Positions 3,078 through 61,614 of a DNA stretch of 64,000 bases are shown here, in pieces. This DNA is from Eledone cirrhosa (Eukaryota): the NCBI GenBank assembly GCA_964016885.1, contig OZ024743.1, forward strand, positions 368,900,001 to 368,964,000, written 5' to 3'. Position 1 is the stretch's first letter. Each line of letters opens with the position of its first letter. The translations under genes were made by a program, and so were the position numbers. The notes under the pieces were generated by a model. It was not told where the DNA came from, made no database searches, and was given only the letters and a program-made list of their open reading frames with translations.

Positions 3078-3081
<4 letters not shown>

Positions 3082-4938
3082 TCTTTATTAACCACAAGGG
3101 TTTACACAAAGTGAGACATTAAGGACAATACAGGACGGTACAAATGGGCAGTTCTGCGTGTAAAAAAAATAAAAACAGAGGATGTAACAAAAAAAGAAAC
3201 AATGAAAAATTCCCCAATAGGGGGGGGGGGGAGATTTCCGATGGACATTCGTGGAGAAAGCCCATTAAAAAAGCCACGGTGACCCTGACCACCAGGGCAA
3301 GTGCACTCTCCCAGTTTTCCACCTTCAATTTACAGGTGCATACTCAGAGTAGGTCCATTCACTCATGCCATGCTTGCTTCTCTCACCCATCTTTCAACAA
3401 AATGCTGGGAAGAGAGCACTTCCCACTCTACCCTGATTTTCCTTTTCAAATGAAATTGGAAAAAGTTAATCAGGGCATCACCGAAGAGGTAAGTGCTCGT
3501 CTTCAGCCCTTTCAAACGCGTCCACCACACTATCTCTTTCGTCATGGCCACCAGACAGATAAAAACTGCCTGCCCTTCCCGGCTAAAGGAAGAGGGTGGG
3601 ACAATCCTCACGATGGACTCAGCTGATAGCCGGATCCGTCCTACACGTGACAGCAGGTGTTCGATATAAACCCACAAGTCAGCAATGCTCGGACACTGGA
3701 CGAGTGCATGCAGGACAGTTTCGTCGCCCTGCGCACATCTCGGACATGCCCGGCTGATGGCACTTCCATGCCTGTAGAGTTTATCTCGAACTGGCAAAGC
3801 TCCTTGGTAGCACTACCAGGCCAGGGATTTCTGGAAGCTGTCCATAGAGATTGGCTAGTTGATTTTCGTCGACGCCAAGAGTCTCCCCAGAGTCTTCCTA
3901 ATCCTCTATAGAATGCCAAGGTGGAGTTTCCACCGATCGCATTGCCCGACTGGTCGAGGGCTGTGAGCTACGATGTACACGTTCGCCACCTCCATTTCTG
4001 GCTGAGAGAAGCCACCCTGCTCATGGCCTCCTCCCAGTTTTTGTCCGTCTTGAGGTCTGGACCGAACCACGGGACCCTCCTCAACATCTCCAGTTTGTGC
4101 AGTAATGGCTCGAGAGTCAATACGTACAAGAGGGACGAGAGGGGACATCCTTGCTGGACAGAGCGCATGATGTTGAACGGCTCTGAAAGGTGACCGTTCA
4201 CTCTCACCACAGAGCAGATGTCGCTGTGCATGGCAGCGATCCAGCCTCTGAAGACAAGCCCAAAGCCAGCCGCCCTCAGGACTGCCGCCAGATAACGATG
4301 GTCGACCCTATCGAAAGCTTTCGACTGATCGAAATTGATCAAGGACCCACCCGTGCCAGGTTCCCTAGCTACCCTCTCCACAATGTATCGCATGAGGTGG
4401 AGGTTGTCTGGGATGGCGCATGTCTGCGCCTCTCCCACCAGACCACCAACGATAAGCGCCAACCTCTTTGCTAGCCCCTTGGCCAAAATCTCGAACTCTG
4501 GATTTAGCAGAGTTATGGGCCTGAAAATATCTATGTTATCCCCCTTGTTCGGATCCTTTATCAGCAGCACCACCACTCCTCGGCTTACAGAGCTGGGAAT
4601 TCTCCCGTTCTGTTGCCAGTTGCAGTACACGTCCGCCAAGAGGTCTCCGATCAAGTCTGGCATGTGTATGTAAAGTTCGTAGGGCTGCCCATCCAAACCA
4701 GGCGATTTAACCCTTGTGCAGCCTCTCATTGCCTCCTGTACTTCAGCGGCTGTTATCGGCTTTTCGTAACACTCCCCTTCAGTGGCCGTGAACCGCGGTA
4801 GTCCGTCGAGGTAGGCACTAAAGTCCATCCCGCGATCCAGCCCACCGCTGCCCTCGAACAGCTGGGGGAAATGTCGCTGAAAAGCTTCACAAATTTGCCC
4901 AGGATCGAGTAGCATGCGCCCATCGTGGTCCACCAGAC
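3005..4938 (-). mobile_element. L1/Tx1-type LINE, 5'-truncated and internally deleted (RT, C-terminal zinc motif, 3' UTR, ATT tail)
   Basis: ORF 3968-4933 has KSPGLDG, RPITLLN, DQSKAFDRV and QGCPLS. ORF 3363-3797 has CPRC-x8-H-x4-C. Ends GGTTAATAAAGAAAG(TAT)n. The YADD region is deleted. Confidence 0.92.
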
Positions 4939-6916
4939 AGATCCATCCACGACAACCTCCACCTCATGTGATACATCATAGAGAGGGTAGCTAGGGAACC
5001 TGGCATAGGTGGGTCTTTGATCAATTTAGATCAGTCAAAAGCTTTCGATAGGGTCGATCATCGTTATCTGGCAGCAGTCCTAAGAGCAGCTGGCTTTGGG
5101 TCTGTCTTCAGAGGCTGGATTGCTGCCATGCACAGCGACATCTGCTCTGTGGTGAGAGTGAACGGTCACCTTTCGGAACCGTTCAACATCATGCGCTCGA
5201 TCCGCCAGATATGTCCTCTCTCATCCTTGTTGTACGTATTGACTCTTGAGCCATTACTGCACAAACTGGAGACACTGAGGGGGATCCTACGTGAACTAGG
5301 ATGCGGAAGAACAGTGCCAGCTTATGCAGACATCACCGTAGTGGTGTCGAACACCAAATACATCGAGTCAATCGGCACTACACTAAGAGAATACGAGGTA
5401 GTGACAGGAGCAATGATCAACCAGGAAAAATCAGTAGGCCTGCAACTCGGCACCTGGAGAGGCAGGTACATGCCGCCCAACAGCGTCGTCGGGCACTGGA
5501 CGGATGGACCGGTTAAATTGCTAGGGGTCTGGTTCGGTCCAGACATCCTGACGGACAAAAACTGGGAGGAGGTCACGAGCAAGGTGTTTTCTCTCACCCA
5601 GAATATGGGCCGAGAGGAAGCTATCCCAGAAAGGTCGAGCGGAGGTGGCGATTTCGTACATCGCGTCCGTCATCTACTACCGCCTGACCGTCATGCCTTG
5701 TCCTAAGCCTCGCCTGACTGCACTGGAGCGTTTGCTCTTCGCTTTTTGTGGAAGGGACGTGCTCCGATGGTCAGGCGGTCCATTTGCTGTCAACACCCAC
5801 TACACGAAGGGCTGGGCATGCCGTGCTGATGATGCGCAGACTTGCGCTCAGGCTACGGCATCTCCACCTCTTCCTCGACGGTGTTCAGGTGTGGTCGCCC
5901 TTTGCTAGACACATGTTTCCCCAGCTTGTCTCCTTGGCGGAGCTGCAGTCCTGGGTCAAGCGAAGACTGGGAGGAAGCGCTTGGAGACTGGAATGTCTTC
6001 AGGCGCTTACAGCCCTCGACCAGTCGAGCAATACAATCGCTGGAAACTCCACCTTGGCTTTCTATAGAGCATTAGTGGAAGGAAAAGCAACGACATCCTT
6101 GGGGAGACTCTAGGCGTTGACGAAAACCAACTAGCCAATCTCTTCGGGAGAACTTTCGGGCCGGGACCCATGGACAACTTCCAGAAATCCCTGGCCTGGC
6201 AGTGCTACCGAAGAGCCTTGCCAGTTCGGGATAAACTATACAGACATGTTCGTGATGCGCACAGGGCGATGAAACCGTCCTGCATGCACTCGTCCAGTGT
6301 CCGAGCATTGCTGATTTGTGGGTTTATGCCGAACACCTGCTGTCACATGTAGAATGGATCCGGCTATCAGCTGAGTCCATCGTGAAGATTGCCCCGCCGC
6401 CTTCCTTTAGCCGAGAAGAGCAGGCAGTTTTTATCTGCCTGGTGGCCATAGTAAAAGAGATTGTATGGTGGACATGTCTGAAAGGGTTGAGGACTGGTAC
6501 TTCCCTCTTCGGTGATGCCCTCATTAACTTTTTCAAATTTCACCTGAAGAGGAAAATCAGGGTGGAGAGGGAAGTGCTGACCTCTAGCCAGTTTGTTGAA
6601 AGGTCGGTGAGAGAGGCAAGAGTGGCCCGTGTGAATGGGTCTACCCTGAGCGTGTGCCTGTAGCATTGTAGGAGGAAAACTGGAAGAGAGCATTTGCCCT
6701 AGCGGTCAGGGTAACCGTGGCTTTTCTTGTGGGCTTTCTCTATGAGCAACCCTCGGAGGTCTCCTCCCTATTGGGAATTTTTCATTGTTTCCTTTTGTCA
6801 CACTCTGTTTTTGTTTTTTTTTATATGCAGAAATGCCCATTTGTATTGTCCTGTGTTGTCCTTAATGTTATACTTAGTGTCAACCCTTGTGGTTAATAAA
6901 GAAAGCATTATTATTA

Positions 6917-6952: not shown

Positions 6953-8991
6953 CTTACGTAGGAAATCGTATTATCATGAGCTCTACAAAGGTTTGTTGTT
7001 TTCAGTTGTTTCAAATTGCCAGTGATGGAAAATTTTTGTTGTTAAGTGTTTATAAGTTCATATATATTGCTTTCTGAAAAGGACACTCTATAATATTGGG
7101 GCCTTGAGCCAAAAATTTAAACTTTTATATTTATCAAACAAAACATTTCTTTGGAAATAAACATGGATGGCTTTCAGCCACCCAATTCTGCTGACAGCGT
7201 TTCTAACAGACTAACATCTCCCACCACCATTGTAAACAATGCTACGGTTGCCTACACTGAAAATATAAGTAATAGCAGTGGAAATTATTTAGATTTGTCA
7301 CATGAAGACATGGATTTCCCACCATTACCAATATCTACAGGTGTTAAAGCCACCACAATGTCAAAAAGAACAACCAACATCACTGATACCACCACCACTA
7401 CCACAGCAACAACTGAAACAAAAAATAAATTATTATCTTGTGATATCAAAATGGATTCTCCGAAAATCGACTCTTCTATGCCGAACGCCACTGACACCAC
7501 CACCACAACAACTGAAACTAAAAATAATAATAACAAAAATAAGAATAACAACAGCAACAACAGCAACAATAAGAATAACAACAACACCAACACCAGTGCA
7601 AAACCAAATGTGTCGTTTGCTAAAGTGGCAAACATAAATGAAACGGTTGAGGTAAGCCAGGAAGAATTGAATGAAGCCAAGCGAATGGTAAAAAAATATG
7701 GAACCGTGGACGTGTTCTTTGGAACCCCACAGGAAGCCAGAGAGCTTTCCATGGCCCTATTAAAAAGTGACAAGTTCAAACTCGTCCCAAGCTATTGTGG
7801 TCAGAGGCTGATAAGGATCAGGGTGACTCAGGTTCAGCTGGCCATTGAAATTCCCTGGCTAATGGCTGCCGTCCTCGCCGACATCGAGGCCGACACTAAA
7901 GTAATTCAGGAGAACTGGTCCGGATCTGGGATGGAGCTCCTGATCCAAGCGGACCAAAAAAACATGAGGAAATTCCAGAGGTGATAGACCTCAATGTCGG
8001 CAGCCACCTCACCGTAATCGTTGAGGGTAGAAGGCCAAGGTGTGTCGTTTGTGGCGAAGGAACCCACCTAAAGGCTTTCTGCCCTCAGGCTAAAAAGTTG
8101 AGACCACCTCTCCTACCCACCCCAGTGACTCAACCATCAAAACCAGCAGCAGAAATGGCAGCAACAACTGTAGCAACAACAACAGAAGCAACTGTAGCAG
8201 CAACAGTAGCAAAACCAACACCACCACCACCCACCACGCCAGAATTAGCACCAGCGCCTCCACCATCCACCACGCTACAACCAAAACCAACGTCTGTGGA
8301 GGATTTTCCACTCCCCCATCTCTCACAATTGGAGACAGATTGTGATGACGAGGAGGAGTGGGAATCTGTATCTGGAAAAAAGAAAAAAAAAAAAAAAAAA
8401 AATCCTCTTCCCTCGCCCTCCAAAAACAAAATGCAGGGCGAATCAAACAAACAAACAAACTAACAAAAAAGTTAAGACAGCTATGTCACCACCCACACCA
8501 GCATCACCAGCCCCATCACCACAAACACCAACACCATCACCATCATCAACCCTAACACCACAAAAATCACCAACAAGCGAAACAGAAACAAACCCACAAC
8601 AAACGCAAACAAAACAAAACAACTAAAATGATATACACTCCACAGCATTAATTTGAACAACAACCAATTATTACACTACATGCAACACAACACCAGCATC
8701 ACAGAAAAAGACTATACAACACCCTAAAAATTCACACCACCCCACACATACAAATCACTAGCATCATTCAGAAAACATACACAACACTAAAATTAAAATT
8801 CCCCAAGGACATCGGAGACTTCTGGCAAACACTTTCCAGGAGGATTTATGAAGACATCCTTCCGGAGGGGGCCACAACAGTGAGAATGATGGAAAAACCA
8901 TCCTTCTTCCACAAGAAGTTAGGTAAGTGGTCTTTCCCATCTTTTTCCACTCCTTTTCAACATGACCTTACTCAGAATAGGCAGCATAAAT
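6952..8991 (+). mobile_element. 5' part of an L1/Tx1-type LINE: 5' UTR, ORF1 and the first codons of ORF2
   Basis: Homologous to 11770-14022 (-). ORF2 start MTLLRIGSIN at 8962 is the first strand of the APE domain. Confidence 0.85.
7163..8926 (+). pseudogene. Frameshifted LINE ORF1 with CCHC zinc knuckle and Thr/Asn/Pro/Lys low-complexity tracts
   Basis: ORFs 7151-7984 and 7981-8463; CVVCGEGTHLKAFC fits CX2CX4HX4C; C-terminal block (FPKDIGDF..LSRRIYEDI) shared with copies at about 11900 and 36300. Confidence 0.8.
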
Positions 8992-8994
8992 GAG

Positions 8995-9640
8995 CTTTAC
9001 TAGCGCTTTACTAAACCTAATTGACTCTATTCTAATCGCTCTTTACAGGGCAAAGAACCATTTGTTGTTGACGGTGACCCCTGTCAACGCCCGCTTAACT
9101 AATTCGCTAATCCGGTCTCTGCAACCTTTGCGTGCTGTTAATGACGCGTTTAGCTTCCAGTAGCCGGGTCCCTGACTATGAAGCCTATTAAAGTCAACCA
9201 CACAGATCACGAATTTGTGGTCCGTGTAGCTGACTATCTTGAATTGTGGACAGCATATGCTAGACCTATCTATTTCCCTACAAAATACTCTATCTAGATA
9301 TGATCTGGATGAACCAATGCGGTTTGTCCAAGTCCACATTGGCACATTCGGGATATCCAATCGGTACCTGTCCGACAGTTGAAAACGCCTGAGTAGGTTT
9401 GTGAGGCTTTTACACCTTCCTCCCCTATCCGCTAATCCCACACAATCCCAGCGTGCATCTAAGATACCGTTCCAGTCGCCCACTTACACTAGATAGTGGG
9501 ACGTTCCAAGAAAGGTCTCCAGACGCCGGAAAAAATCAGGCTGTTCTGCTCCTGTTGGGGCATAGGCGGCCACTAGCCTGAAAGCTTGTCCTTCTCCACT
9601 GGTCACGTCCAGTACCACCAACTTACCTTCTTGGACCCAT
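8995..9640 (-). mobile_element. Tx1 endonuclease (APE) fragment
   Basis: GDWNGILD, SYLDRVF, TDHKFV and GPGYWKLNASL in ORF 9043-9483; AAYAP in ORF 9484-9672. Confidence 0.9.
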
Positions 9641-12600
9641 AATAATAATAATAGTTTCTTTATTGGCCACAAGGGCTAATATGAAGAAAAACATTACAGA
9701 GACGGCACAGAACGATACAAAGTTGGTTTTGGCCATGTAAAAGGGTTATAAATGACAGAAACGTGTAAAATAAATTAAAATTTAAACATCAAAAAATTCC
9801 CCAATAAGGGGGAAGCTTCCGAGGGTCACTCGTGGCGAAAACCACACAAAAGACCACGGCCACCCTGACCACCAGGGCAAGCGCCCTATCTCAGTTTTCC
9901 CACTCCTCAGTTTACAGACGCATACTCAGAGTGGGCCCATTCACTCGGACGAGATTCGCCACTTTCACCCACCTTTCAACAATTCTCAGGCACTGAATGA
10001 GTACATGCAGGACAGTTTCATCGCCCTGCGTGCATCTCAGACAGGCTCGGCTGACAGCACCTTCGTGCCTGTAGAGCTTATCCCGAACCAGCAACGCTCC
10101 CCGGTAGCACTGCCAGGCCAGGGATTTCCGAAAATTGTCCATAGGCTCCGAGATGAAAGTTCTCTTGAAGAGAGCAAACAGCTGATCGTCTTCAACGCCC
10201 AGGGTCTCCCTGAGAACGTCGTCGCTTTTCCCCTCCACTAGCTTCTATAGAACGCCGAGGTGGATGTCCCACCGATATCAGTGCCCAGCTGGTAGAGGGT
10301 GGTGAGCGCTTGGAGACATTCCAGCTTCGAAACGCTATTCCTCGGTCTTTTTCTGATCCAAGACTGCAGCTCCGTCAAGGAGACGAGCTGGGGAAAATCA
10401 TGTCTGGCAAACAGCGACCACACCTGTTCACTGTCCAGAGATGTCGCAGCCTCAGCACATGTTTGCGTATCATCAGCCACGGCATGCCCAGTCCTCCATG
10501 CAACGGGTGCTGACAGCAGATGGATCGTTTGACCATGAGAGCACGTCCCTTCCACAAAAAGCGGAAGAGAAGGCGCTCCATTTTGGTTAGAGTTGGACGG
10601 GGGCAAGGTACGACGGTCAGGCGGTAGCAGATGATGGATGTGATATACGCATTCGCCACCTCCGCACGACCTTTCAGAGACAGCCTCCTCTCAGCCCATT
10701 TCTGGGTGAGAGAAGCCACCCTGCCGCCACCTCGCTCCAGCTTTTCTCCATCTGGAGGTCCGGACCGAACCAGACCCCGAGCAATTTAACCGGTCCTTCC
10801 GTCCAGTGCCCCACGACGCTGTTGGACGGCATGGGCTTGCCTCTCAAGGGTGCCGAGTTATAAGCCCACCGACTTTTCCTGGTTGATCTTTGCTCCTGTC
10901 ACCGCTTCGTATTCCTTGAGATTGGTGCCGAGGATCTGGACATGTTTGATGCTCGACACCAGCATGGTGAATTCGTCGGCGTAAGCCGACACGAATCTTC
11001 CACATCCCAGTTCGAATCTTCCACATCCCAGTTCTCCAATCTGTGCAGTAATGGTTCGAGGGGCGAGAGGGGACAACCTTGGCGGTCCAAGGGCATGATG
11101 TTGAACGGCTGCGACAGGTGACCATTCACCCTTACAATCGAGCAGATGTCGCTGTGCATCGCTGCGATCCAGCCTCTAAAAACGGCCCTGAAGCCAGCCG
11201 CCTCGAGGACCGCTGCCAGGTACCGATGGTCGACCCTATCAAATGCTTTAGATTGATCCAAGTTGATCAGGGCCCCACTCGTGCCAGGTTCCTTAACCAA
11301 CCTCTCTATGATGTATCGCATGAGATGGAGGTTGTCGTGGATGGATCTATCCGGAATGGCGCATGTTTGCGCCTCTCTCACCAGATCACCGATGACAAAC
11401 GCCAATCTCTTTGCTAACACCTTGGCCAAAATCTTAAACTCTGCGTTTAGCAGAGTTATGGGCCTGAGGTTGTCTATAATGTCCCCCTTGTTCACGTACT
11501 TTCTCAGCAGCGCTACCGCTCCCCGGCTCACAAAACTGGGAATGCTCGTTCTGCTGCCAGTTGCAGTAGACATCTGCCACAAGTCTGGCATATACGTATA
11601 AAGCTCGTAGGGCAGACCATCCAAACCTGGCGATTTACCCCTCCTGCAGTCAGACATCGCTTCCAGTATTTCACCTGCTGTATCGACTTTTCGCATCACT
11701 GCACTGCGGTCATCCAGAGCCGCGGCAGGCCGTCGAGGTATGCACTGAGGTCGTTGAGCAGGTGGCCCTGCTTCCAAGATGACCCCAGGCCACGTACATT
11801 TATACTGCCTATTCTAAGTATGGCCATGTTGGATGAGGAACGGGGTAAGTGAGAAAGGATCACTTACCTTGATCGTGTGGTGAAGGGACAGTAGAACCGT
11901 CCCTTCGGCTGGTCATGGGTGTCTCCTAGATGATATCTGTATAGATTCTCTTGGAGAGTGACCCCCTGAAATCATCAACTGCGTTGGGGTATTTTTGTTT
12001 TAATTGTTTGTAATCTTCGAGTTCAATTTCCACAATGTTAATATTTTTTGGTAACGTTCTTGGTGTTGGTGGGGTGTGGTAATTTACGTCTGAAATATCT
12101 GTGCTGTTTTATATGTTCCATTAGTCCTTGGTGTGCAGTGTTTATGGCTGCGTACTTTTTGGGGGGGGGGGGTTGTTGCTCTTTTCTTGTTGCTGTTGGG
12201 TGTGTGTGCTTTGTTGTGTTTGTGATGTTGGTGTTTTTGGTGATCGTGGTGTGGTTGTTGTTGGTGGTGAGGCTTTTGGTGGTGATGCTTGTAGTAGTGA
12301 TGGTTGTGGTGTTGCTGCAAGTCCCCTTGCAGCCTTTACCATTCTTTTTTTGTCCTCGCTTTTGGAGGGCGAAGCTAAGTGGTTCTTTCGTTTTTTGTTT
12401 TTTTTGTACCACTTCCCTCCCACCTCAAACTCCATGTCGGATTTTGTGGCGTATGGGAGGGGTATGAGCTCCACGGCTGTTGGTGGTGGTAGTGGAGCCC
12501 TCTCCGGCGATTTTGCCGCTGGTGTAGCTACTGCGACTGTTGGTGTTGCCGCCACTGCTGCCGCTGTTTTAGTTGTCCATGGCGTTGGTATGGGTGCCAT

Positions 12601-14022
12601 GGACGTTGCCCTCCTACTCACCATGGAAGGGTTTTCTGCCTCTGTTGCTTGCCCTGCTATTGGTAGTAGTGGATCAGGCGTCGGAAAGAGGGGGGGGGGA
12701 CTCTTCTTAGCTATCTTCTCACAGAGATAGCATTTTGGGCGCCTTCCTTCCACGTTCATAGGGAATTGGAGTCCTTCCTCGAGGTCTATGATATCTGGGA
12801 TGGCCTCGATACACCCCTGGTCAGTTTGTATTAGCATTTGCATGCCTATACCTGACCAGTTTTCTCTTCCCATTCTCTGTATTTGCAGTATGGTGGTCCT
12901 GTCCTCGATTCCAGAAAGGACAGACGCGGCCAGTCAAAGTTATGGGCACGTCGGGCGGGACCTGAGTCACTTTGACCCTCACAATTTTCTGCCCACTGTA
13001 AGAGGGCACCAAGACTATCTCCTCATTTTTTAGGGTTTCCAAAAAATGAGACTTCGCCTCTTGGGGGGTGGCGAAAAGTGCGTCTACTGTGGCATACTTT
13101 TTGCCTCGGGTGATGTGGGTTTTGCGCGCCCAGATGCACCCCAAGGCCTTTTGGATTTGAGCATCCGTGGCTCTCTCCACCCGATGTGACATTTTGCTTA
13201 CGGTGTTGTAAGTCACCGTGCGCAGTTGCTGGTTCTTGAAAAAATTGGGTGGAGGTTTCAGGGAAACTCTATTGTTATTTCTTGTCACCATGGCCCTTGG
13301 GACTACCATCTCCTCCTTCGTGACTAACACTGTTTCTATATTTCGGGCCACACCTGCGAAAGAAGTGGCCCCTTTTTCAGCGGCACCATTATTGCTGCTG
13401 CTACTGATGCTACTGGTCTTGTTGTTGGTGCTGTTGCTGTTGCTACTGCTACAGACGGTGTTGTTGGTGTTGTTGCTGTTGTAGTTGGTTGTGTTTATGG
13501 TGCCACCGTTGTTGCTGTTTTCGGTGCGATTTTATTTTTGCTGTTGGTGTTGTCGTTGTTTATTTTCTTGTTAGTGGTGTTAATATCGTTGTTGTATTTG
13601 TTGTCATTTTTTTCTGTTGTCTGTATTTTGGTTGTCACTGTTATTGTTGTAGTTGGTGTGGTAATTTTTTAAAAATTAGTGTTCTCAGTGTTGTTGTAAT
13701 TGCTGCCTTTGTTCACGTTGTTTGTGGTGGTGTTTGTTGTATCAATTTCTGTAACCCTCATCTCAACTTTTACGCCATTGTCACACGACAGCAGATATAT
13801 TGCTGGGGGTGTGGCTCAGCCATGTTTCTTTTTTTTTTATTTTTAAAAGTAAAATGTTCAAATATTTGGGCCAAAAGGCCCAAATATTATACTTTCCCCT
13901 TCACAGGGCAAAGTTCAAGGGCTTATATCCCTTACACAACAAGAAAAATTTAACAACAAATAATTATAACAGGTAAATAAAGCGACTTACAGGGAGCAAG
14001 CAAAAAGACGGCTGAACAGACC
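9641..14022 (-). mobile_element. L1/Tx1-type LINE with both ends present but most of the endonuclease and linker deleted
   Basis: 5' end abuts (ATT)n at 14023. ORF1 pieces at 12821-13351 and 12142-12873. ORF2 start MAILRIGSINVRGL at 11827. RT motifs in 10899-11777 and AYADEF in 10858-11076. 3' end GCCCTTGTGGCCAATAAAGAAACT(ATT)n. Confidence 0.9.
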
Positions 14023-14208
14023 AATAATAATAATAATTCTACTTTTATAATAATAATTCTACTTTTGGTACAAGGCCAGCAATTACCCAGTGCAATACTG
14101 GAACTTTATTTTATCGACTCCGTAAGGGTGAAAGGCAAAGTTAACCTTGGCGGGATTTGAACTCAGATTGACAAGGGCCGTAACACCATGCATCAAAGCA
14201 TGGCGTTA
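14023..14208 (-). mobile_element. Young tRNA-derived SINE (family A here), 5'-truncated, with a duplicated tail
   Basis: B box GAGTTCAAATCC, central TTTGCCTTTCA.CCTTACGGAGTCGATAAAATAAAG, tail AAAAGTAGA(ATT)n present twice. Confidence 0.9.
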
Positions 14209-14665
14209 TAATAATAATAATAATAATAATAATGATGATGATAATAATAATACTTTCTTTATTAACCACAAGGGTTTACATAAAGTAGACATTAAGGACA
14301 GTACAGGACAATACAGGACGGTACAAATGGGCATTTCTGTGTGTAAAAAACAAAAACAGAGGATGTAATAAAAAATAACAAAGAAAAATTCCCCAATAGG
14401 GGGGAGACTTCGGAGGGACATTTGTGGAGAAAGCCCATTAAAACGTGTCCACCATACTATCACTTTCGCCATGGCCACCAGACAGATAAAAACTGCTTGC
14501 CCTTCCCGGCTAAAGGAAGAGGGCGGGGCAATCCTCACGATGGACTCAGCTGATAGCCGGATCCGTCCTACACGCGACAGCAGGTGTTCGACATAAACCC
14601 ACAAGTCAGCAATGCTCGGACACTAGACGAGTGCGTGCAGGACGGTTTCGCACGCACTCGTCCAC
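14209..14665 (-). mobile_element. Tx1 3' fragment with an internal deletion
   Basis: ORF 14206-14604 WVYVEHLLSRVGRIRLSAES..; 3' UTR nearly identical to 3078-3270. Confidence 0.9.
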
Positions 14666-14679
14666 ATGATGACAATGAT

Positions 14680-14938
14680 GATAATAATAATGTTTTCATT
14701 GTTAACAACAAGGGTTGACATAAAGTATAACGGTACAAATTGGCATTTCTGCATGTAAACAAAAAAACAAAGAAAATTACAAAAAAAGAAACAAAGGAAA
14801 ATTCCCCAATAGGGGAAGAGACTTCTGTGGGACACTCGTGGAGAAAGCCCATTAAAAATGCCCTCTCCCAGTTTTCCACCTCCAAATTACAGGCTCATAC
14901 TCAGAGCAGGCCCATTTACTCGGGCCATGCGTGCCTCT
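14680..14938 (-). mobile_element. Tx1 3'-end fragment
   Basis: ARMARVNGPALSMSL-stop, then 3' UTR with CCTATTGGGGAATTTT and an ATT tail. Confidence 0.85.
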
Positions 14939-15140
14939 ATCATAATAATAATGTTATAATAGCCATTGATATTGTATTCATCAACATCAATATCTTTCAC
15001 GTCATCATCATCATCATCATCATCATAGATAAATTCCCATTTAAATAAGCCTGCATAGATTAGATATCTCCCCTCCAGTAGAGCATATCTCGATTTGTCT
15101 CTTTTTTGTAATTTCAGTTGAAAATAAAATATCAACAACA

Positions 15141-30240: not shown

Positions 30241-30342
30241 TTGTTTCTACGTTAGGCACAAGGCCAGCAATTATCCAGTGCATTACTGGTACTTTATTTT
30301 ATCGACCCCATAAGGATGAAAGGCAAAGTTAACCTCGGCGGG
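30241..30342 (-). mobile_element. Family-A SINE, 5'-truncated, with a ~17-bp TSD
   Basis: TTCATATG(A/G)AATATAAT flanks both sides. Confidence 0.9.
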
Positions 30343-30889
30343 TTTCATATGGAATATAATGTAATTTTATATTATATGAAAATATAGCGATTTTACATTA
30401 TGTAGTATGTATGCCCCTGTGTAGTTATTATAATACAAGGGAACTATATCGAATGTTAGGCAGTGAGTAAACCCCATGGGAGGTGGGTAATTAAATATAT
30501 GTATAAATAATTAATGGATGTTAAATAAGTCAAAGAGATAGTGAAATACAATTAATGAATGATAATAATTAATATCTCGTTGAAGTGATTGGAATGAGGA
30601 CCCTACTGAGATATGTGGTACCACATATGAGGTATGAGATAACCTGAAGATTAAGGTGTACACAACTAATATCTGAAATATATAGTATAATAAAAGCCCA
30701 GTGCAGTGGAATAAAATTAAATAAAAAAATAAAAAAATAAAAAATAAACATATAAAATATAAATGATATCAAGTAATATATACTGTAAGGTCTGAGATGA
30801 AACTTTCGGTATAAATACCTGAAAAACACTAAAAGACTCAGTCAGTACAAGATATAGAAGGTCAAGAAGAAACAGAAGGGGTCATGTAG

Positions 30890-31190
30890 ATAATAATAAT
30901 AATAATAATGAAATTATTGTGTACAGTGCTCAGGTGCACTACAACTCATCAAAGGCGCATGTATAGTACATAGAATAATATACAAATGTCAGGGAAGTGT
31001 GGGGTGTAGTGGAATATTAGGTGTAGTGTTGGCGAATCTCAGGAAGCATGGAGGTTTTAAAGGATGCATTGTCTCGACAGCTAATAACTGATGGAGGTAG
31101 TTTGTTTCATGCTTCAGCAACTCTGAGTGTGAAAACATGTTTCCGAAAGTCATGAAAGTCATGGAAGCTGTGCTGTCTTCTGACTTTGTT
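30890..31190 (-). mobile_element. CR1-like LINE 3' end with ATT tail
   Basis: Highly similar to about 59937-60215 (HDFRKH...RVAEAWNKL type C-terminus). Confidence 0.85.
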
Positions 31191-31685
31191 GGCATCAAAC
31201 AGTTGAGAAAGTCCAAATTGCAAACAGAAATAATAAAGCAAATGACACAGTACAATGAAGAGATATATTATGAAATAGTATGAAAAGAGTCTTGACGTTT
31301 TGGGTGCTAGTCCTTCATCAGAAAATAGAAAGGGAAATTAAAGAAGAAATAGAAAGATTGGGGAAACGAGCAGTTGTGGAAATGGAAAAAAAATGTTTAG
31401 GGAAAATAACATGTCCATTCATGTTGCTATCCTCCCCACTATCTTTCTCTCTCTATATATATATATAAGTATTTTTGTTGGGGAATATATTTGAATAAAA
31501 TGGTGTAATTCTTCTCTTGATGCCCTAAGCATGTGCTTATTTTGCTTCGTGGTTAATCAACCCTGGCTGCATTGTAGCAGTTAGTCCAGTTATATATAGT
31601 GACCACTGTGAGTGAATGTTGCTAAGATGCTAGAGGAGCAGATTTGGATCAAATTAATTATATTCTGCATCACTGAAACTAATTA

Positions 31686-32613: not shown

Positions 32614-35600
32614 ATAATAATAATAATAATAATAATGCTTTCTTTATTAACCACAAAGGTTTACACAAAGTAGATATTAAGGACAGTACAGGACAATACA
32701 GGATGGTACAAATGGACATTTCTGCGTGTAAAAAAACAAAAAACAGAGGATGTAACAAAAAAAAGAAACAATAAAAAATTTCCCAATAGGGGGGAGACTT
32801 CCAGGAACATTCGTGGAGAAAGCCCATTAAAAAAGCCACGGTGACCCTGACCACCAGGGCAAGTGCCCTCTCCCAGTTTTCCACCTTCAATTTACAGGCA
32901 CATACTCAGAGTAGGCCCATTCACATGGGCCATTCTTGCCTCTCTCACCCCTCTTTCAACAAAATACTGGGAAGAAAGCACTTCCCTCTCTACCCCGATT
33001 TTCCTTTTCAAATGAAATTTGAAAAAAGTAAATCAGGGCATCACCGAAGAAGTAATTGCTCGGATCAGCCCTTTCAAACGTGTCCACCATACTATCTCTT
33101 TCGCCATGGCCACCAGACAGATAAAAATTGCCTGCCCTTCCCGGCTAAAGGAAGAGGGTAGGGCAATCCTCACGATGGACTCAACTGATAGCTGGATCCA
33201 TCCTACACGTGACAGCAGGTGTTCGACATAAACCCACAAGTCAGCAAGGCTTGGACACTGGACGAGTGCATGCAGGATGGTTTCGTTGCCCTGGTCACAT
33301 CTCGGACATGCCCAGCTGATGGCACTTCCATGCCTGTAGAGTTTATCCCGAACTGGCAAGGCTCCTTGGTAGCACTGCCGGGCCAGGGATTTCTGGAAAT
33401 TGGCCCATAGGCCCCGGCCCGAAAGTTCTTCCGAAGAGATTGGCTAGTTGATTTTCGTCGACGCCTAGAGTTTCCCCAAGTACTAATCCTCTATAGAACT
33501 CCAAGCTGGAGTTTCCACCGATCACATTGCCTGACTGGTCGAGGGCCGTGAGCACCTGAAGACATTCCAGTCTACAAGCGCTGGCTCTCGGTCTTCGCTT
33601 GACCCAGGACTGCAGCTCCGTCAAGGAGACGAGCTGGGAAAAGATGCATCTAGCAAACGGTGACCACACCTGATCACCAGGTGGAGATGTCGTAGCCTGA
33701 GCGCATGTCTGCGCATCATCAGCCATGGCATTACCAGCAATCCACGTAGCAGGTGTTGATAGCAGATGGACCGCCTGACCATCGGAGCGCATTCCTTCCA
33801 CAAAAAACGAAAGAGCAAACACTCCAGTGCAGTCAGGTGAGGCTTAGGACAAGATGATGGACGCGATGTACGCATTTGCCACCTCCGCGCGACCTTTCAG
33901 GGATAGCTTCCTCTCTGCCCATTTCTGGGTGAGAGAAGCCACCCAGCTCATCACCTCGTCCCAGTTTTTGTCCATCTGGAGGTCCGGACCGAACCAGACC
34001 CCTAGCAATTTAACCGGTCCGTCCGTCTGGCGCCTCTCCAGGTGCCAAGCTGCAGGCCCACCAACTTTTCTTGGTTGATCATTGCTCCTGTCACCGCTTT
34101 GTATTCTCTTAGTGTGACACCGATCGCTTCCATGTGTTTGGCGTTCGACACCACTACGGTGTCATCGTCCGCATATGCTGACACGGATCTTCCACATCCT
34201 AGTTCCCACGAGAGCCCCCTCAACGTCTCCAGTTTGTGCAGTAATGGCTCGAGAGTCAATACGTACAAGAGGGACGAGAGGGGACATCCTTGGCGGACCA
34301 AGTGCATGATGTTGAACGGTTCCAAAAGGTGACCATTCACTCTCACCACAGAGCAGATGTCGCTGTGCATGGCAGCGATCCAGCCTCGGAAGACGAGCCC
34401 AAAGCCAGCCGCTCTCATGACTGCCGCCAGATAATGATGGTCGACCCTATCGACGAAAGCTTTCGACTGATCTAAATTGATCAAGGACCCACCCGTGCCA
34501 GGTTCCCTAGTTACCCTCTCCACGATGTATCGCATGAGGTGGAGGTTGTCGTGAATGGATCTGTTTGGAATGGCGCATGTCTGCGCCTCTCCCACCAGAC
34601 CACTAACGACAAGCGCCAACCTCTTTGCTAACACCTTGGCCAAAATCTTGAACTCTGTGTTTAGCAGAGTTATGGGCTTGAAATTATCGATGTTATCCCC
34701 CTTGTTCGGATCCTTTCTCAGCAGCGCCACCGCTCCTCGGCTCACAGAGCTGGGAATTCTCCCGTTCTGTTGCCAGTTTCAGTAGACGTCCGCCAAGAGG
34801 GCTCTGAACAAGTCTGGCATCTGTACGTAAAGGTCATAGGGCAGACCATTCAAACCAGGCGATTTACCCCTTGTGCAGCCAGTCATTGCCTCCCGTACTT
34901 CAGCGACTGTTATAGGCTTTTCACAACACTCAGCAAGTGGCCGAGAGCCGCAGCAGTCTTTTGAGGTAGGCACTAAAGTCCATCCCTCGATCCGGCCCGC
35001 CGCTGCCCCCGAACAGCTGAGCGAAGTGTCGTTGAAAAGCTTCACACATTTGCCCGGGATCGAGTAGCATGCGCCCGTCGTGGTCCACCAAAGACCGGAT
35101 CGTGGCTTTGTTGCCACGACACACCTCCGCCACTCGAGCCCATTGAATGGCTTTCGTCCCCTCGTGTCTGAGAGCATGCACCCTAGCTCTGACAACGCAG
35201 CCTTCATGCTTTGCATTGAAGAATTGGTCAAGGGCCAATTTCGCTGCAAGTACGTCGTTCACGATGCCTTTGCTAAGCGCCTCGTCTAATTTTCTCTATT
35301 GCTAAAACCTTACTAAATCTAATGAACTCTATTCTAATTGCTCTTTTTAGAGCAAACCACCACTTGTTGTTGACGATGGCCCCCGTCAACGCCTGCTTAA
35401 CTAGTTCGCTAATCCGGTCTCTGTAGGCCTTGCACGCTGTTAATGACGCGTTTAGCTTCCAGTAGCCGGGTCCTTGTCTATGAAGCCTATCTAAGTCAAC
35501 CACACAGATCACAAATTTGTGGTCCGTGTAGCTGACTATCTTGAATTGTGGACAGCCTATTCTAGACGTATCTATTTCCCTACAAAATACTCTATCTGGA

Positions 35601-36590: not shown

Positions 36591-36599
36591 TGGGGTAGA

Positions 36600-37602
36600 T
36601 CTTTTTCCGGCGTCTGGAGACCTTTCTTGGAACGTCCCGCTCTTAGATGTATGCTGGAAACCTGCTCAGATGGTTTCAACTGTCTGACAGGTACCGGTTG
36701 GATTTCCCGAATGTGCCAATGTGGACTTGGACAAACTGCATAGGGTCATCCAGACCATATCTAGATAGGGTATTTTGTAGGGAAATAGATAGGTCTAGCA
36801 TAGGCTGTCCACAATTCAAGATAGTAGACCACACGGACCACAAATTCGTGATCTGTGTGGTTGACTTAGATAGGCTTCATAGACAGGGACCCGGCTACTG
36901 GAAACTAAATGCGTCATTAACAGCGCGCAAAGCTTACAGAGAGCGGATTAGCGAATTAGTTAAGCGGGCGTTGACGGGGGGCATCATCAACAACAAATGG
37001 TGGTTTGCCCTGAAAAGAGCGATTAGAATAGAGTCCATTAGGTTTAGTAAAGCGTTAGTAATAAAGAAAAATAGAACAGAGAGAGATGTAGTTAGCAAAT
37101 TAGACGAGGCGCTTAGAAAAGGCATCGCGACCGACATGCTTGCTGCGAAATTGGCTCTTGCCTAATTTTTCAATGCAAAGCACGAAGGCTGCATTGTCAG
37201 AGCTAGGGTGCGTGCTCTCAGACACGAGGGGACGAAAGCCATTAGATAGGCCCGGATGGCGGAGGCGCATCGTGGCAACAAAGACACAATCTGGTCTTTG
37301 GCGGACCACGACAGGCGCATGATACTCGATCCCGGGCAGACGTGTGTGGCTTTTCAGCAGCACTTTTCTCAGCTGTTCGATGGCAGTGGAAGGTCGCATC
37401 GCGGGATGGACGTTAGTGCCTACCTTGACGGACTGCTGCTGCTCTCGGCCACTGAAGCGGAATGTTGCGAAAGGCCGATAACAGCTGCTGAAGTATGGGA
37501 GGCAATGACTAGTTGCACAATGGGTAAATCGCCTGGTTTGGATGGTCTGCCCTACGAACTTTACGTACATATTCCAGACTTGTTCGAAGACCCCTTGGCA
37601 GA
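36600..37602 (+). mobile_element. Tx1 internal fragment (APE C-terminal half to RT start), inverted relative to about 34790-35810
   Basis: ORFs 36647-37165 and 37256-37612 (GPGYWKLN; [13 protein letters not shown]). Confidence 0.92.
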
Positions 37603-39100
37603 CAATGATTAAGGATCACCTTATCAATCAACAATTGATACTTAGTCCCCCTGCTTCTTATCCTACATCCCTTCTGCTCTGCAGGTAGTGTCTCCTCCAG
37701 GTATTCATACATTGCCTCAGCAATGACACCTGCCTTAAGTTTCCACATAAGAGGGAAGCTAGAGATAGGTTTGGAGTTGTCAACTGCATTTCCTTTACTG
37801 TGGTCCTTCAAACACAAGATAATTCTTCCAAAGGCTAGCCATTCTGGCAACTTCTTTTCTCCATTCAAGATCTTATTCAGTTGCTCAGCAATTTTCCAAT
37901 GAACGGCTCTCAGCTTTTTCAACCAGAATCCCTGCACCTCATCTCTGCCAGGAGATTTCCAATTTGGTATCTCTCTAAACTGGATAGTTACCATATCAGA
38001 TGTTATCTCCAATTCTCCCTGTTGATCATCCCCAATGTCATTTTTTATTTTAGTCCACACTTCTATTGTGCTCTTTTCCCACACTCCAGTTATCACTCCA
38101 AAATTTCTTACTTTCATCTGCATCAGAGATTACATCATCATTCCTAACCATGCCATTTTCCTCCTGATAGAATCTCTTCTGATTTTGTTGGAAACATACA
38201 TTGTTTATACTGCATGATCTCTTGTTCATACCACTTAATCTTTGCAGCTTTGGCAAGTACCTTTTGTTTCAGCTCCTCAATTACCATAGTAATCTTCTTT
38301 CTCCTGATATTGTATTTCCCTGTAAGTTGTTCAATCTTTCCCTTTTTTAATTCACCTCGTTTTTCCCTTTCCAGATTATTAATATCTTTCCTAAACATTT
38401 TGCTGTCCCCTTCAATTCTCCTTTTCCACCATGGTTCCTTGATCTGCTTTTGTGTAGTCTGTTTCAGACCTAAATCTTTCGCAATGTAGATACTTGCAGT
38501 GCTGGTGAGATTGTTGTTTTCTGTGATGGTTCTAGTTGGCACCATATCAAGGATGTTGTTTACTTTCTTAGTTATTTGTTTTAGCTGACATTGGTTTGCT
38601 TTTGTAAAATTTATTGGGTTGTTGCCTCCTGATTTAGAGATCTCCAATATATCAGCAATCATCCGTCTGCCTTTTCCTGATATGTACTTCGGTTCATCAA
38701 TGTTAATGTCACCTCCTGCATCATCTCGAATATTCAATTCCTCTCCTTCCTGTTGGATTCCTTCGTTTTCCGTACTCTCATCTCTATTTGAATCTCCAAC
38801 ATCCTAGCTTATCTTTTTCATTAACATTTCAATCTCAGTCTCAGATAGCCATCCGTTTTTGTGTATTGTTCTTGCCTTATCACAAATCTCCTGTTATACT
38901 CATAACAACCTTAATATATCTCATAATATCCTCTTATTGGCACACTGCTTTTATTCACAAACCCAATTCTAAAACAACACTCTATAACAGCCTTGTTTAC
39001 CTCTTTACTCCACTTCATTCTAGCAGTGTCATCATGATGACCGGGCCTGCACTGCTCAACCACAAAATACCTGCCTGATGAGGCACCTTCACTAGAAACT
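37603..39100 (-). mobile_element. R4/Dong-clade non-LTR retrotransposon, 5' half only
   Basis: [23 protein letters not shown] and [20 protein letters not shown] in ORF 37509-38123; PWWKRRIE in ORF 38144-38737; upstream WSKEVN and NGWLSETEIE. Clade call from recalled motifs. Confidence 0.75.
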
Positions 39101-39354
39101 CCAGCACTTTTTGCATCTTTGTGTAAACAATTGTTTTAGATCATTTCACTCATTGAGGTTAGTGTTTCTTTTTTTTTGGGGGGGGGCATCTCTAGAAGGT
39201 GACATAAACGACTTTGAAGAGCCCTCAAACATGCAGATTTTACACATTTTTGGATGGCTGTTGACTCTCCTGAGTTCCTCTGCTCTTTGCTGGGTTTTGT
39301 TTTTATATCATGCAGGGTGCCCCAAAATCCCTTTCCCCCTTACCTCCTACCTCC

Positions 39355-40879
39355 TCGAGCACCAAAAACATTGAGGTGATTGGCGCTGCTCTGGGGAAAA
39401 ATTGAAGCACTGACAGGATCAAAAATTAACCAGGAAAAGTTGGTGAGCCTGCAACTCAGCACCTGGAGAGGCAGGTCCATGTCGTCCAGCAGTGACGTCA
39501 GATGCTGGATAGATGGAACGATTAAATTCTCAGACTCTGGTTCAGTTCAGACATTAGGATGGACAAAAACTGGGATGAGATGATGAACTGAGTGACCAAT
39601 CTCACCCAGAAATGGGCTGACAGAAAGCTGTCCCTGAAAGGTAAGGCAGAGTGATGAACACGTATATCACATCCATCATCTACTACTGCTTTACTGTCAT
39701 GCCTTGTCTGACTGCACTGGAGTATTTGCTCTTTATCTTTTTGTGGAAGGGATGCATTCCGATGGTCAGCCGGTTCATCTGCTGTCAAGGACAGGGAATG
39801 ACATAGCTGATGATGCTCAAACATGTGCTGAGGCTAAAACATCTCAATCTTTTCCTTAACAGTGAACTGGTGTGGTCACCATTCACCCGATGCATGTTCC
39901 CCCAGCACGTCTCCTTAATGGAACTATAGTCCTTGGTAAAGCAGAGACTGAGGGGACACGCTTGGAAACTGGAATGTCATCAGGTGCTTGCAGCCCTCTG
40001 CCAATGAGGCAGTATGATCGGTGGAAACTCCACCTTGGCGTTCTTTTGAGTGTTAGTGGCAGATTAAAGTGATGACATTCTTGAGGAATCTCTAGACATT
40101 GATGAAAATCAACTAGCCACTCTTTTGGGACTTTGTCAATTCAAGATAAACTCTACAGGCATGGAAATGCCATCAGCCAGGCTTGTCTAAGATGTGCACA
40201 GGGTGATAAAACCGTTCTGCATGCAAACGTTCAGAGTCCAGCATTGCTGACTTGTGGGTTTATGCCGAACACCTGCTCTCATTGAAGATTGTCCTGCTGC
40301 CTTCCTTTAGTCAGGAAGGGCAGGTTGCCTTGTGGCCATGGCGAAAGACATTGTATATGGACATTCTTGAAAGTGCTGAAGATTAGCTCTTTCCTCTTTG
40401 GTGAAGCCTTGAGTAACTTCTTCAGGTTTCACTTAAAGAGGAAAATTAGGGAGGAGAGGGAAGTGCTGCCTTTAAAGCAATTTGTTGAAAGGTGGGTGAG
40501 AGAGACAAGCATGACCTGAGTGAATGAGTCCACTCTGAGTGTGTGCCTGTAAATTGGAAGAGGATAAATGGGACAGGGCACTTACCCTAAAGATCAGGGC
40601 ACCCATAGTTTTATTAGGTTTTTTTCCATGACCCTTGAACGTCTCTTCCCTATTGAGGAATCCCTTTTGTTTTGATTTTTATTGTTATCTTTCTTTTTTA
40701 ACATTATTAAATTTGTTTACACGCAAAATCCACACACCAACACACACATGCCCCAACATACACACACACACATCAGCACACACACACATAAACACACTGT
40801 GTGTTTGTCCTGTGCCGTTATAATGTTTTTCTTAACGTTAGCCCTCATGGTAAATAAAGAAATCATAATTATTATTATT
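39355..40879 (+). mobile_element. Older degenerate Tx1 3' half with a (CA)n insertion in the 3' UTR
   Basis: TGSKINQEK, FHLKRKIREEREVL; ends GCCCTCATGGTAAATAAAGAAAT followed by ATT repeats. Confidence 0.85.
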
Positions 40880-41060
40880 GCGGTGAATTGGCAGTATCGG
40901 TAGAGGGTCGGACGCCATACTTTGACGCATAGAGTTACGGCCCTTGCCATTCTGAGTTCAAATCCCGCCGACGTTAACTTTGCCTTTCATCCTTACGGGG
41001 TCGATAAAATAAAGTACCAGTAATACACTGGGTAATTGCTGGCCTTTAAAAGTGGAAACA
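40880..41060 (+). mobile_element. Family-A SINE, full length, inserted in the Tx1 tail
   Basis: A box TGGCAGTATCGG, B box GAGTTCAAATCC; flanked by ATTATTATTATTGC on both sides. Confidence 0.92.
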
Positions 41061-45185: not shown

Positions 45186-45360
45186 TGTTTCTACTTTAGG
45201 CACAAGGCCAGCAATTACCCAGTGCATTACTGGTACTTTATTTTATCGACCCCGTAAGGATGAAAGGCAAAGTCAACCTCGGCGGGATTTGAACTCAGAT
45301 CGTAAAGGGACGTAACTATGCTGGAAAGCATGGCGTCCAACCCTCTACTGATACTGCCAC
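45186..45360 (-). mobile_element. Family-A SINE
   Basis: Near-identical reverse complement of 48915-49099. Confidence 0.92.
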
Positions 45361-48914: not shown

Positions 48915-49099
48915 GGGCGGTGGATTGGCAGTATTGGTAGAGGGTCGGACGCCATGCTTTCCAGCATAGTTATGTCCCTTTACGATCTGAGTTCAAATCC
49001 CACCGAGGTTGACTTTGCCTTTCATCCTTACAGGATCGATAAAATAAAGTACCAGTAATGCACTGGGTAATTGCTGGCCTTGTGCCTAAAGTAGAAACA
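48915..49099 (+). mobile_element. Family-A SINE, full length, 15-bp TSD
   Basis: AATATTTTCAAATAT at 48898-48912 and 49100-49114; A and B boxes present. Confidence 0.95.
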
Positions 49100-51800: not shown

Positions 51801-51982
51801 GTGAATTGGCAGTATCGGTAGAGGGTCGGACACCATGCTTTGATGCATAGAGTTACGGCCCTTGCCATTTTGAGTTCAAATCCCACCGAGGTCAACTTTG
51901 CCTTTCATCCTTACGGGGTCGATAAAATAAAGTACCAGTAATGTACTGGGTAATTGCTGGCCTTGAGCCAATAGTAGAAACA
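51801..51982 (+). mobile_element. Family-A SINE, 16-bp TSD
   Basis: ATTATTTCAAAACTTG at 51785-51800 and 51983-51998. Confidence 0.95.
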
Positions 51983-55445: not shown

Positions 55446-55632
55446 GGCGGTGGATTGGCAGTATCAGTAGAGGGTCGGATGCCATGCTTTGACGCATAGA
55501 GTTACAGCCCTTGCCATTCTGAGTTCAAATCCCGCCGAGGTTAACTTTGCCTTTCATCCTTACGGAGTCGATAAAATAAAGTACCAGTAATGCACTGGGT
55601 AATTGCTGGCCTTGTGCCAAAAAGTGGAAACA
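55446..55632 (+). mobile_element. Family-A SINE, full length, ~16-bp TSD
   Basis: ATTATAT(C/T)AAATATA on both sides; A and B boxes present. Confidence 0.95.
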
Positions 55633-58912: not shown

Positions 58913-59389
58913 TAATTTTGAAATAGTTCCCTTTGTGTAAAATACATTCTTTCAATACACAAAATTATTTGTATTTCGCACATTCTAATATTGTAAAACT
59001 AATACAAAAACTGATAATATGCCGAGATGTCAACTCCAGCTGTTCTTTTTTTTTCTATTTTGGTGCGGTTGGGGTATGGGCAGATGTACTCAATCTACTT
59101 TTATTTAAGCAGTGAAGCCATGAACTTAAAACCTTGAGATAGACATTGAGAGGTTTTTATATCTCTTTACTTACACTTTGTTGACCTAGTGACCAAACAA
59201 TTGTATTAAATCACTATTGAACTATGTCCTAATATATAACTATTGTTTTTTTTGTTTTGTTTAAACTAAGTAATCCGATATATAATATTTGAAACAAAGA
59301 TATTAGTAAACTCATAAAAACAATAGTGACTTTGAATTTAAACATTAGTTTGGCTTGTACTGACAGATCAGTGCAAACGTTTCATACCT

Positions 59390-59534
59390 TCTACTTTTGG
59401 CACAAGGCCAGCAATTATCCCAGTGCATTACTGGTGCTTTATTTTATCAACACCGTAAGGATGAAAGGCAAAGTTAACCTCGGCGGGATTTGAACTCAGA
59501 CCGTAAAGGGTCGTAACTCTATACTGCCAATCCA
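59390..59534 (-). mobile_element. Family-A SINE with an internal deletion, adjacent to (TAA)n
   Basis: Same B box, central domain and 3' end as other copies. Confidence 0.9.
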
Positions 59535-59549
59535 ATAATGATAATGATG

Positions 59550-61434: not shown

Positions 61435-61614
61435 GTGGTGGATTGGCAGTATCGGCAGTGTCAGACGCCATGCTTTGAAGCATAGAGTTACGGCCCTTCC
61501 CGTTCTGAGTTCATATCCCGTCAAGGTTAACTTTGCCTTTCATCACGGGGATGATAAAATAAAGTACCAGTAATGCACTGGGGAATTGCTGGCCTTGTGC
61601 CAAAAGTAGAAACA
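61435..61614 (+). mobile_element. Family-A SINE inside the 5' LTR
   Basis: A box TGGCAGTATCGG; 3' end GGCCTTGTGCCAAAAGTAGAAACA(ATT)n. Confidence 0.92.

Follow-up and report, generated by a model that had tools for sequence, protein, structure and literature searches.

A predicted 3'-terminal hairpin common to a Tx1-like LINE and a SINE of Eledone cirrhosa suggests a stringent-type pair within the L1 clade

Introduction

Which long interspersed nuclear element (LINE) copies the short interspersed nuclear element (SINE) termed here SINE-A is the question raised by a 64,000-nucleotide stretch of Eledone cirrhosa DNA (assembly GCA_964016885.1, contig OZ024743.1, positions 368,900,001 to 368,964,000), hereafter the window. 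The window is animal DNA rich in repeats, with a GC content of 40%, and contains seven 3' ends of one LINE group and 11 copies of SINE-A of about 190 bp each (Table 1). Other LINE material comprises a Dong/R4-type element, of which only the 5' half is present, together with CR1-like pieces from the 3' part and pieces resembling RTE; the labels Dong, CR1 and RTE rest on known motifs and placement in a tree. A preliminary description of the window had proposed that the LINE group, assigned to Tx1, shares its 3' terminus with SINE-A, and that an L1-clade LINE with a non-poly(A) end drives the SINE. The present analysis supports that inference, mobilisation itself being deduced: SINE-A and the Tx1-like LINE probably constitute a stringent-type pair, in which the SINE would be copied by the open reading frame (ORF) 2 protein of that LINE lineage by way of a hairpin.

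A 3' terminus common to LINE and SINE

The two end strings on which the proposal was founded, one from the LINE copy near position 9641 and one from the SINE-A copy at 61433, are both present where they had been placed, and the match of 19 of 25 columns between them was reproduced by gapped alignment with two gaps, the 9641 copy being the best of the seven LINE ends. The gaps are unneeded: the two mismatches that they hid form a compensatory G-C/C-G pair. Ungapped and anchored at the junction, the majority 25-mer of the SINE (built from eight of the 11 copies, the ends at 41034, 55601 and 14084 being omitted on account of indels or loss of the end) agreed with the seven LINE ends at 17, 14, 13, 14, 14, 12 and 14 of 25 positions. 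Shuffling gave P = 1.5e-5 for the best LINE copy (9641); the two copies scoring 14/25, and the majority that was tested, gave approximately 0.002. The AGAAAC end of SINE-A is also common to the LINEs of the window. CR1 had been named as an alternative partner, and its ATT end is confirmed, but the CR1-like end of the window is unlike the SINE tail (11/25); the RTE-like end reached 10/25, both values having been obtained even with sliding. The observation of a common terminus is confirmed and is stronger than first stated, the feature in common being a hairpin and not a 25-nt identity.

A predicted hairpin with a conserved loop and a covarying stem

A hairpin of 3 to 4 bp is predicted for all seven LINE ends and for the SINE, 16 nt before the ATTAT or AATAT junction. 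In an ungapped alignment of seven LINE and eight SINE ends, 30 bases each (the same three SINE ends left out), the loop is CTTGT, or CUUGU in RNA, in 12 of the 15, and the stem pairs are GGC/GCC in the SINE, GCC/GGC in the 9641 LINE and AACC/GGTT in the main LINE subfamily. Stem columns 6-9 and 15-18, picked post hoc with both elements in view, are paired in 90% of cells versus 13-52% when slid. Double changes were found at three of the four stem pairs, and RNAalifold predicted the three inner pairs of the stem.

At 14 of 127,900 positions an exact CTTGT is flanked by three closing Watson-Crick pairs; 11 of these positions are element ends and three lie elsewhere (2.4 expected). When 127,910 positions were scored with a profile for which only LINE ends had served as training set, with the stem scored for pairing alone and the tail excluded, SINE ends ranked first to third, and eight SINE ends stood among the top 11 positions outside the training set. 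None of the 40 best-supported variant sites in the read pile-up lay inside the LINE hairpin. Scans for the layout pattern in other collections returned seven viral loci and one metagenome locus, none with a SINE or LINE flank within the 40 nt inspected and all attributed to chance.

Insertion signature and age

Target site duplications (TSDs) of 17, 14, 7, 15, 16, 16, 18 and about 13 bp were found for eight of the 11 SINE-A copies, seven starting with ATTAT and one with AATAT; three copies have no clear TSD. The six SINE TSDs of 14-18 bp reported earlier are real, three of them carrying one mismatch. All three LINE copies with both ends preserved have TSDs (approximately 11-16, 17 and 14-19 bp), and all start with ATTAT. 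Pairwise divergence is 3-13% (mean 8%) for the SINE and 6-11% over approximately 218 nt for four copies of the main LINE subfamily. The partnership had been made to depend on an overlap between Tx1 and the SINE in target start, TSD range and age; this overlap was found, on eight SINE and three LINE TSDs and, for age, four LINE copies.

The elements had further been described as carrying an (ATT)n tail. The run is present, but in the copies with TSDs it is mostly or wholly duplicated target, not an added tail, for hardly any sequence separates the end of the element from the duplication. A chain of two LINEs, one SINE and a further LINE, placed head-to-tail in one another's ATT runs, occupies the minus strand from 14941 to 9639.

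Two rearrangements involving SINE-A were recorded beside these insertions. A tandem duplication of the last 20 nt of the SINE together with the ATT run, at 14027-14066, suggests template slippage as reverse transcription starts. A segmental duplicate (84%) joins 61018-61632 and 63043-63638, with the same SINE insertion in both; one of the two ATT runs later gained a second SINE.

Classification of the LINE

The reverse transcriptase (RT) of the window LINE is nearer to that of L1 than to those of RTE or R4/R2, and ORF1 is followed by an ORF2 with an apurinic endonuclease (APE), an RT and a C-terminal zinc motif, the arrangement of the L1 clade. RVT_1 and zf-RVT domains were detected in pieces of the LINE, and pieces of its N-terminal part could be placed on relatives that have PF03372. 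Among named relatives, the RT was closest to one from Argonauta hians (68%, versus 54% for Sepia pharaonis). When compared with the PDB, the RT matched L1 ORF2p with an E-value of 1.5e-19 and R2 with 5e-12, human L1 ORF2p being the nearest solved structure, while the ESM Atlas yielded generic RT names only. No RNA data set containing the window LINE was found among the matches listed.

In an RT tree the window LINE and L088, an L1-like row, grouped together and were separated from the rows resembling RTE and Dong with support of 97/95, subject to a warning of long branches. The window LINE fell within a group of 29 rows, including fish elements and elements sited at U1 small nuclear RNA (snRNA) genes, that stands apart from L088 (90/93). 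The latter, from the viral collection, we take to be a rodent L1-like sequence.

A preference for a repeated target is also seen: in this one window, all seven Tx1 3' ends abut ATT runs, and all five clean Tx1 5' junctions follow an ATT run, the other four 5' sides being rearranged junctions. Two of the X1 contigs listed span the 5' untranslated region (UTR) through the ATT run. The window LINE is an L1-clade element that appears Tx1-like from its structure and target preference.

Sharp junctions with loss of sequence occur at 4933/4935, 8992/8998, 36640/36659, 37603 and 39355, where Tx1 pieces are inverted or abut the Dong piece. These junctions possibly represent twin priming or the collapse of inverted copies.

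A sister clade with the SINE stem

Of 79 LINE loci recovered by a scan of prokaryotic assemblies, 64 belong to a single assembly, G001 (CAXXMW01 contigs), a GTDB genome labelled Arenicella in which approximately 18 contigs are animal DNA present as contamination. On its small contigs a LINE related to those of the window is arrayed head-to-tail, in some cases with about a dozen units. The units are 6.4-6.8 kb long, near-identical and largely intact and represent several subfamilies; Dong-type pieces are also present. Tandem arraying is a striking lifestyle for the lineage. A TSD for the arrays was sought and is unsupported, the flank at the array start bearing no duplication. The G001 LINEs form the sister group of the window LINEs with support of 100/99, one of them pairs with a cuttlefish protein (100/98), and the zinc-knuckle ORF1 of the window LINE matches the ORF1 of this clade.

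In 61 of 64 loci the sister-clade 3' end is made up of a C-tract, a brief run of A, the hairpin GGC-CT[T/C/A]GT-GCC, another hairpin and AATAAA, with GGCCT[TCA]GTGCC standing 18-22 nt before AATAAA. The three loci without the hairpin are the three shortest and are ended by a contig boundary, and the hairpin is absent from all 15 of the more distant relatives. As judged from 5'-truncated neighbours and an array end, it lies at most approximately 45 nt from the 3' terminus, which has neither poly(A) nor ATT. A longer form of the SINE bears a C-tract at the sister-clade position, as seen in a loose-end consensus at 14086 (12,831 reads, agreement 0.59) and in the old copy at 57640-57800. Because the stem of the SINE, with the C-tract of its long form, is that of the sister clade, whereas its spacing and AGAAAC end are those of the window LINEs, we propose that the SINE tail was captured from the 3' end of an ancestral Tx1 of octopods. 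The hairpin probably marks the ancestral terminus of the LINE, its stem having been retained by the SINE.

This outgroup bears on the suggestion that the likeness of LINE and SINE arose by chance, or by convergence on a small U-rich hairpin beside an A-rich end. The core similarity does extend over only 11-13 nt, the motif was delimited post hoc, something like it is present in the Tx1 5' UTR, and an unrelated G001 repeat (L092:17759) contains the 11-mer in identical form. Yet the background of the motif is approximately 2e-5 per position, the motif stands at an exact distance from the junction, and the sister-clade terminus independently has the SINE stem together with the C-tract upstream of it, a feature that played no part in defining the motif. 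We regard chance or convergence as quite improbable.

The G001 repeat in question is a GC-rich tandem repeat of approximately 286 bp (L092:17500-18100), in which the 11-mer has an unrelated context. Eukaryotic elements of the L1 clade were also recovered from other prokaryote-labelled assemblies (L070-L073, L075, L076, L078-L086); L070, L075 and L078 adjoin U1 snRNA according to Rfam, and L076 has a short stretch that presumably resembles the 5' end of U2. In viral contigs, protein-guided scans with the Tx1 C-terminus and with Dong were empty, and a scan with the Tx1 alignment found four distant loci.

A related motif in the 5' UTR of the LINE

A hairpin motif occurs approximately 50-60 nt before the start of ORF1 in both full-length Tx1 5' UTRs. 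The copy at 7099-7123 resembles the SINE tail, and that at 13868-13895 is a strong palindrome with a core reminiscent of stem-loop I of U2. In run X4 the motif was covered and the remaining UTR was not. The motif may be a captured upstream 3' end.

The SINE tail could conceivably derive from this 5' UTR hairpin, or the SINE could have given its end to the LINE. The copy at 7099-7123 matches the SINE tail at 19/25, above any ungapped 3' end, and both 5' UTRs have retained the motif. The loop, however, differs in the second copy, the hairpin of the sister clade is 3'-terminal, and no relative of SINE-A was found in G001, a small and incomplete sample; capture of a 3' end from upstream could account for the 5' motif itself. 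Either origin is very improbable indeed.

The probable partner of SINE-A and its proposed mechanism

The LINE and the SINE share 3' sequence and a stem-loop, have the same insertion signature and overlap in age, the last two on small numbers. The Tx1-like LINE is the best partner because of the loop and covarying stem, the stem of the sister clade, the sharing of targets and TSDs, and the overlapping divergence.

The SINE tail might nevertheless have been derived from Tx1 once and the SINE be moved now by another LINE priming on ATT, such as an unseen CR1/L2, RTE or Dong family. The CR1-like element, too, ends in ATT; insertions of Dong-R4 and CR1 in O. vulgaris are more recent than those of L1-Tx1, according to Table 1 of PMC13282606; and the SINE targets appear more relaxed than the three Tx1 targets. 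The rival ends available for comparison were the CR1-like and RTE-like ends inside the window and Dong-type ends from G001, the Dong of G001 being distant from that of the window (36% over 61 amino acids, from one RT piece compared). Against a change of partner, the SINE retains the loop, paired stem and 16-nt spacing of the window Tx1, whereas the CR1 hairpin is different and no long TSD was seen by eye at the CR1 flanks. RTE copies end in (GAT)n, and the four G001 Dong-type ends have another 3' UTR of approximately 70 nt and an AAT-phase tail, their match to the SINE giving P values of 0.23-0.96. A present-day partner other than Tx1 is accordingly considered unlikely. Window positions 1-200, 18150-18340 and 24820-25010 were tried as Dong ends and were unconvincing.

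Several observations weigh against mobilisation by the Tx1-like LINE. The stretch common to LINE and SINE is short, the predicted hairpin has little stability (about -1 to -5 kcal/mol), and covariation amounts to only some 2-3 independent compensatory changes in stem columns chosen post hoc. The younger LINE subfamily resembles the SINE tail less (12-14/25) than does the divergent 9641 copy, which need not be the mobilising subfamily, and the top non-SINE match to the SINE tail sits, unexplained, in the Tx1 5' UTR. In run X8 the SINE tail was covered and the last 90 nt of the main LINE subfamily, at 80% likeness, were not. All three LINE TSDs lie inside ATT microsatellites and are of ambiguous length, and five of the eight SINE TSDs lie in plain AT-rich DNA, unlike the LINE targets. 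The sister clade has a longer spacing from loop to end, a second hairpin and no ATT. Local alignment of SINE-A with three sister-clade ends gave shuffle P values of 0.011, 0.081 and 0.003, moderate support only, and the old long SINE copy gave 0.31, 0.91 and 0.03 with the same ends.

Should the Tx1-like LINE be the partner, the SINE tail would have been acquired from an ancestral Tx1 3' end, the window LINEs having flipped stem pairs afterwards. By analogy with L2 biochemistry (PMC4176376), the Tx1 ORF2 protein would bind the CUUGU loop of the SINE RNA instead of poly(A) and tolerate swaps in the stem. The APE endonuclease would nick an ATTAT site, and the freed strand would pair with AUUAU at the RNA end and prime reverse transcription. 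Every insertion would leave a fresh ATT target for the next, as the head-to-tail elements suggest. AATAAA appears to have been lost from the SINE, as would be expected of a polymerase III transcript.

Comparison with known LINE-SINE pairs

The ORF2 protein of the zebrafish L2 elements ZfL2-1 and ZfL2-2 is reported to need the cognate loop and to accept a swapped stem provided that it is paired (PMC4176376). Tx1 and SINE-A show the same pattern of change as the L2-SINE pairs (UnaL2/UnaSINE1; ZfL2-1, ZfL2-2), which have a loop-specific 3' stem-loop with an exchangeable stem; they differ in having a LINE of the L1 clade, a much shorter stem and long TSDs. In the available text of a survey of 58 LINE-SINE pairs, the only L1-clade partners are those of maize/sorghum and Chlamydomonas, with none from an animal (PMC3747384). 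These pairs, ZmSINE2/3 with LINE1-1_ZM and SINEX-3_CR with L1-1_CR, likewise have a structured 3' end common to an L1-clade LINE and a SINE, with compensatory changes, but carry (T)n or (A)n tails, in contrast to the ATTAT target of Tx1 and SINE-A (PMC3747384).

For the crocodilian SINEU, Tx1-Mar was inferred to be the mobiliser from shared targets and age and from tandem insertion (PMC4494074). SINEU differs in its snRNA heads and its poly(A), and no LINE resembling the 3' half of SINEU-1 was found in that study (PMC4494074), whereas SINE-A shares the 3' end itself. Insertion into simple repeats is known from microsatellite-targeting Tx1 elements (Kibi, Koshi and the crocodilian (TTCC)n group; PMC4494074); the target of the window LINE is (ATT)n.

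SINE-A has several traits of a SINE2 element, being approximately 190 bp long, non-coding and dispersed, with TSDs in eight of 11 copies, and its depth was very high in all four runs. Motifs resembling A and B boxes were recognised in its head by eye only; ARAGORN found no tRNA, and Rfam no tRNA match. With a putative tRNA-like head, a B-box-like motif and a conserved middle, it may be one of the octopus tRNA-CORE SINEs (OR2). Searches of two published supplements for its motifs returned no match. Octopus SINEs are dominated by tRNA-Core SINEs (PMC8967140), OR2 is named as a CORE SINE (PMC4758252), and SINEs constitute 11.6% of the O. vulgaris genome (PMC13282606). MetaSINE, characterised by a 66-bp Meta domain, was rejected as an identity for SINE-A, the body of which is unlike the BivaMeta/BivaMD sequences by eye; two body motifs are absent from the accessible part of that supplement (PMC4824008).

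No partner LINE for octopus SINEs is named in the available text of PMC13282606, PMC8967140 or PMC9115989, and Tx1 is not mentioned in the accessible main text of a bivalve survey (PMC11481361). A SINE sharing a hairpin with an animal L1-clade LINE was not found in the open-access literature searched, although a prior description in Repbase or in the original octopus SINE papers is possible. Tx1 and SINE-A are likely to represent a SINE partnership of the stringent kind with an animal L1-clade LINE.

An animal Tx1 that reads a loop would open the stringent-to-relaxed model of L1 evolution to testing in animals. Copies with a natural, uninterrupted ORF2 of 1155 amino acids are present in the sister clade, so a mobilisation assay is possible without reconstruction. 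We hold more tentatively, as slightly less probable than its contrary, that a cephalopod Tx1 lineage is a stringent L1-clade element, with a CUUGU hairpin retained since octopods and decapodiforms diverged, no poly(A) and priming at ATTAT, and that it drove the main octopus SINE expansion. In that case stringent RNA recognition would have persisted in L1-clade elements of animals, and the reading of poly(A) by mammalian L1 would be a derived state.

Features of the window

Table 1. Coordinates of LINE and SINE features in the 64,000-nt window, with the loci of G001
Feature	Position	Strand	Remarks
Near full-length, decayed Tx1-like LINE	9639..14022	-	5' UTR about 13815-14022; broken ORF1; ORF2 with internal deletion of about 1.1 kb
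Duplication flanking LINE 9639..14022			14-19 bp, starts ATTAT
3' hairpin of LINE 9639..14022	9665..9677	-	GCC/GGC stem, CTTGT loop 9669-9673, then AATAAA; element end 9653
Tx1 3' end, main subfamily	3078..3107	-	stem AACC/GGTT
Tx1 3' end, main subfamily	6877..6906	+	
Tx1, 5'-truncated, main subfamily	14252..14665	-	17 bp duplication starting ATTAT
Tx1, 5'-truncated	14692..14941	-	11-16 bp duplication starting ATTAT; one broken stem pair
Tx1 3' end of longest ORF2 copy (32609-36640)	32637..32666	-	loop TTTGT
Tx1 3' end, divergent copy	40835..40864	+	stem GCC/GGT, loop CTCAT; SINE inside its ATT run
Hairpin motif in Tx1 5' UTR	7099..7123	+	best non-SINE window match to SINE tail (19/25)
Palindromic counterpart in second Tx1 5' UTR	13868..13895	-	high depth in contigs of two other runs
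Dong/R4-type LINE, 5' half only	37566..39150	-	without 3' end in window
CR1-like 3' fragment	30890..31230	-	ATT run and different hairpin
SINE-A of the preliminary description	61433..61614	+	hairpin GGC-CTTGT-GCC 61591-61601; end 16 nt past loop
SINE-A, full length	55446..55632	+	16 bp TSD
SINE-A in Tx1 ATT run	40880..41060	+	14 bp TSD; part of hairpin deleted
SINE-A	48917..49099	+	15 bp TSD starting AATAT
SINE-A	51801..51982	+	16 bp TSD; loop CTTGA
SINE-A inside ATT run of another SINE-A	63642..63825	+	18 bp TSD
SINE-A, 5' part lost	63474..63620	+	segmental duplicate of 61433 locus, not an independent insertion
SINE-A, 5'-truncated	30242..30346	-	17 bp TSD
SINE-A	45186..45359	-	7 bp TSD
SINE-A, 5'-truncated, between two Tx1 copies	14058..14207	-	in head-to-tail chain 14941 to 9639
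SINE-A beside ATT run	59386..59535	-	no TSD found
Old degenerate long-form SINE-A relative	57640..57800	+	pyrimidine/C tract upstream of hairpin
G001 loci			L009-L069, L074, L077, L087, L092-L117

An older, second family of tRNA-like SINEs with its own body and tail occurs at 59598-59740, 20142-20276, 56150-56427, 46938-47155 and 1610-1790. The window also contains a satellite with a 19-bp unit at 15141-17801 (140 copies, 94% matches) and a second tandem array at 41119-41613, consisting of 31 copies of a 16-bp unit.

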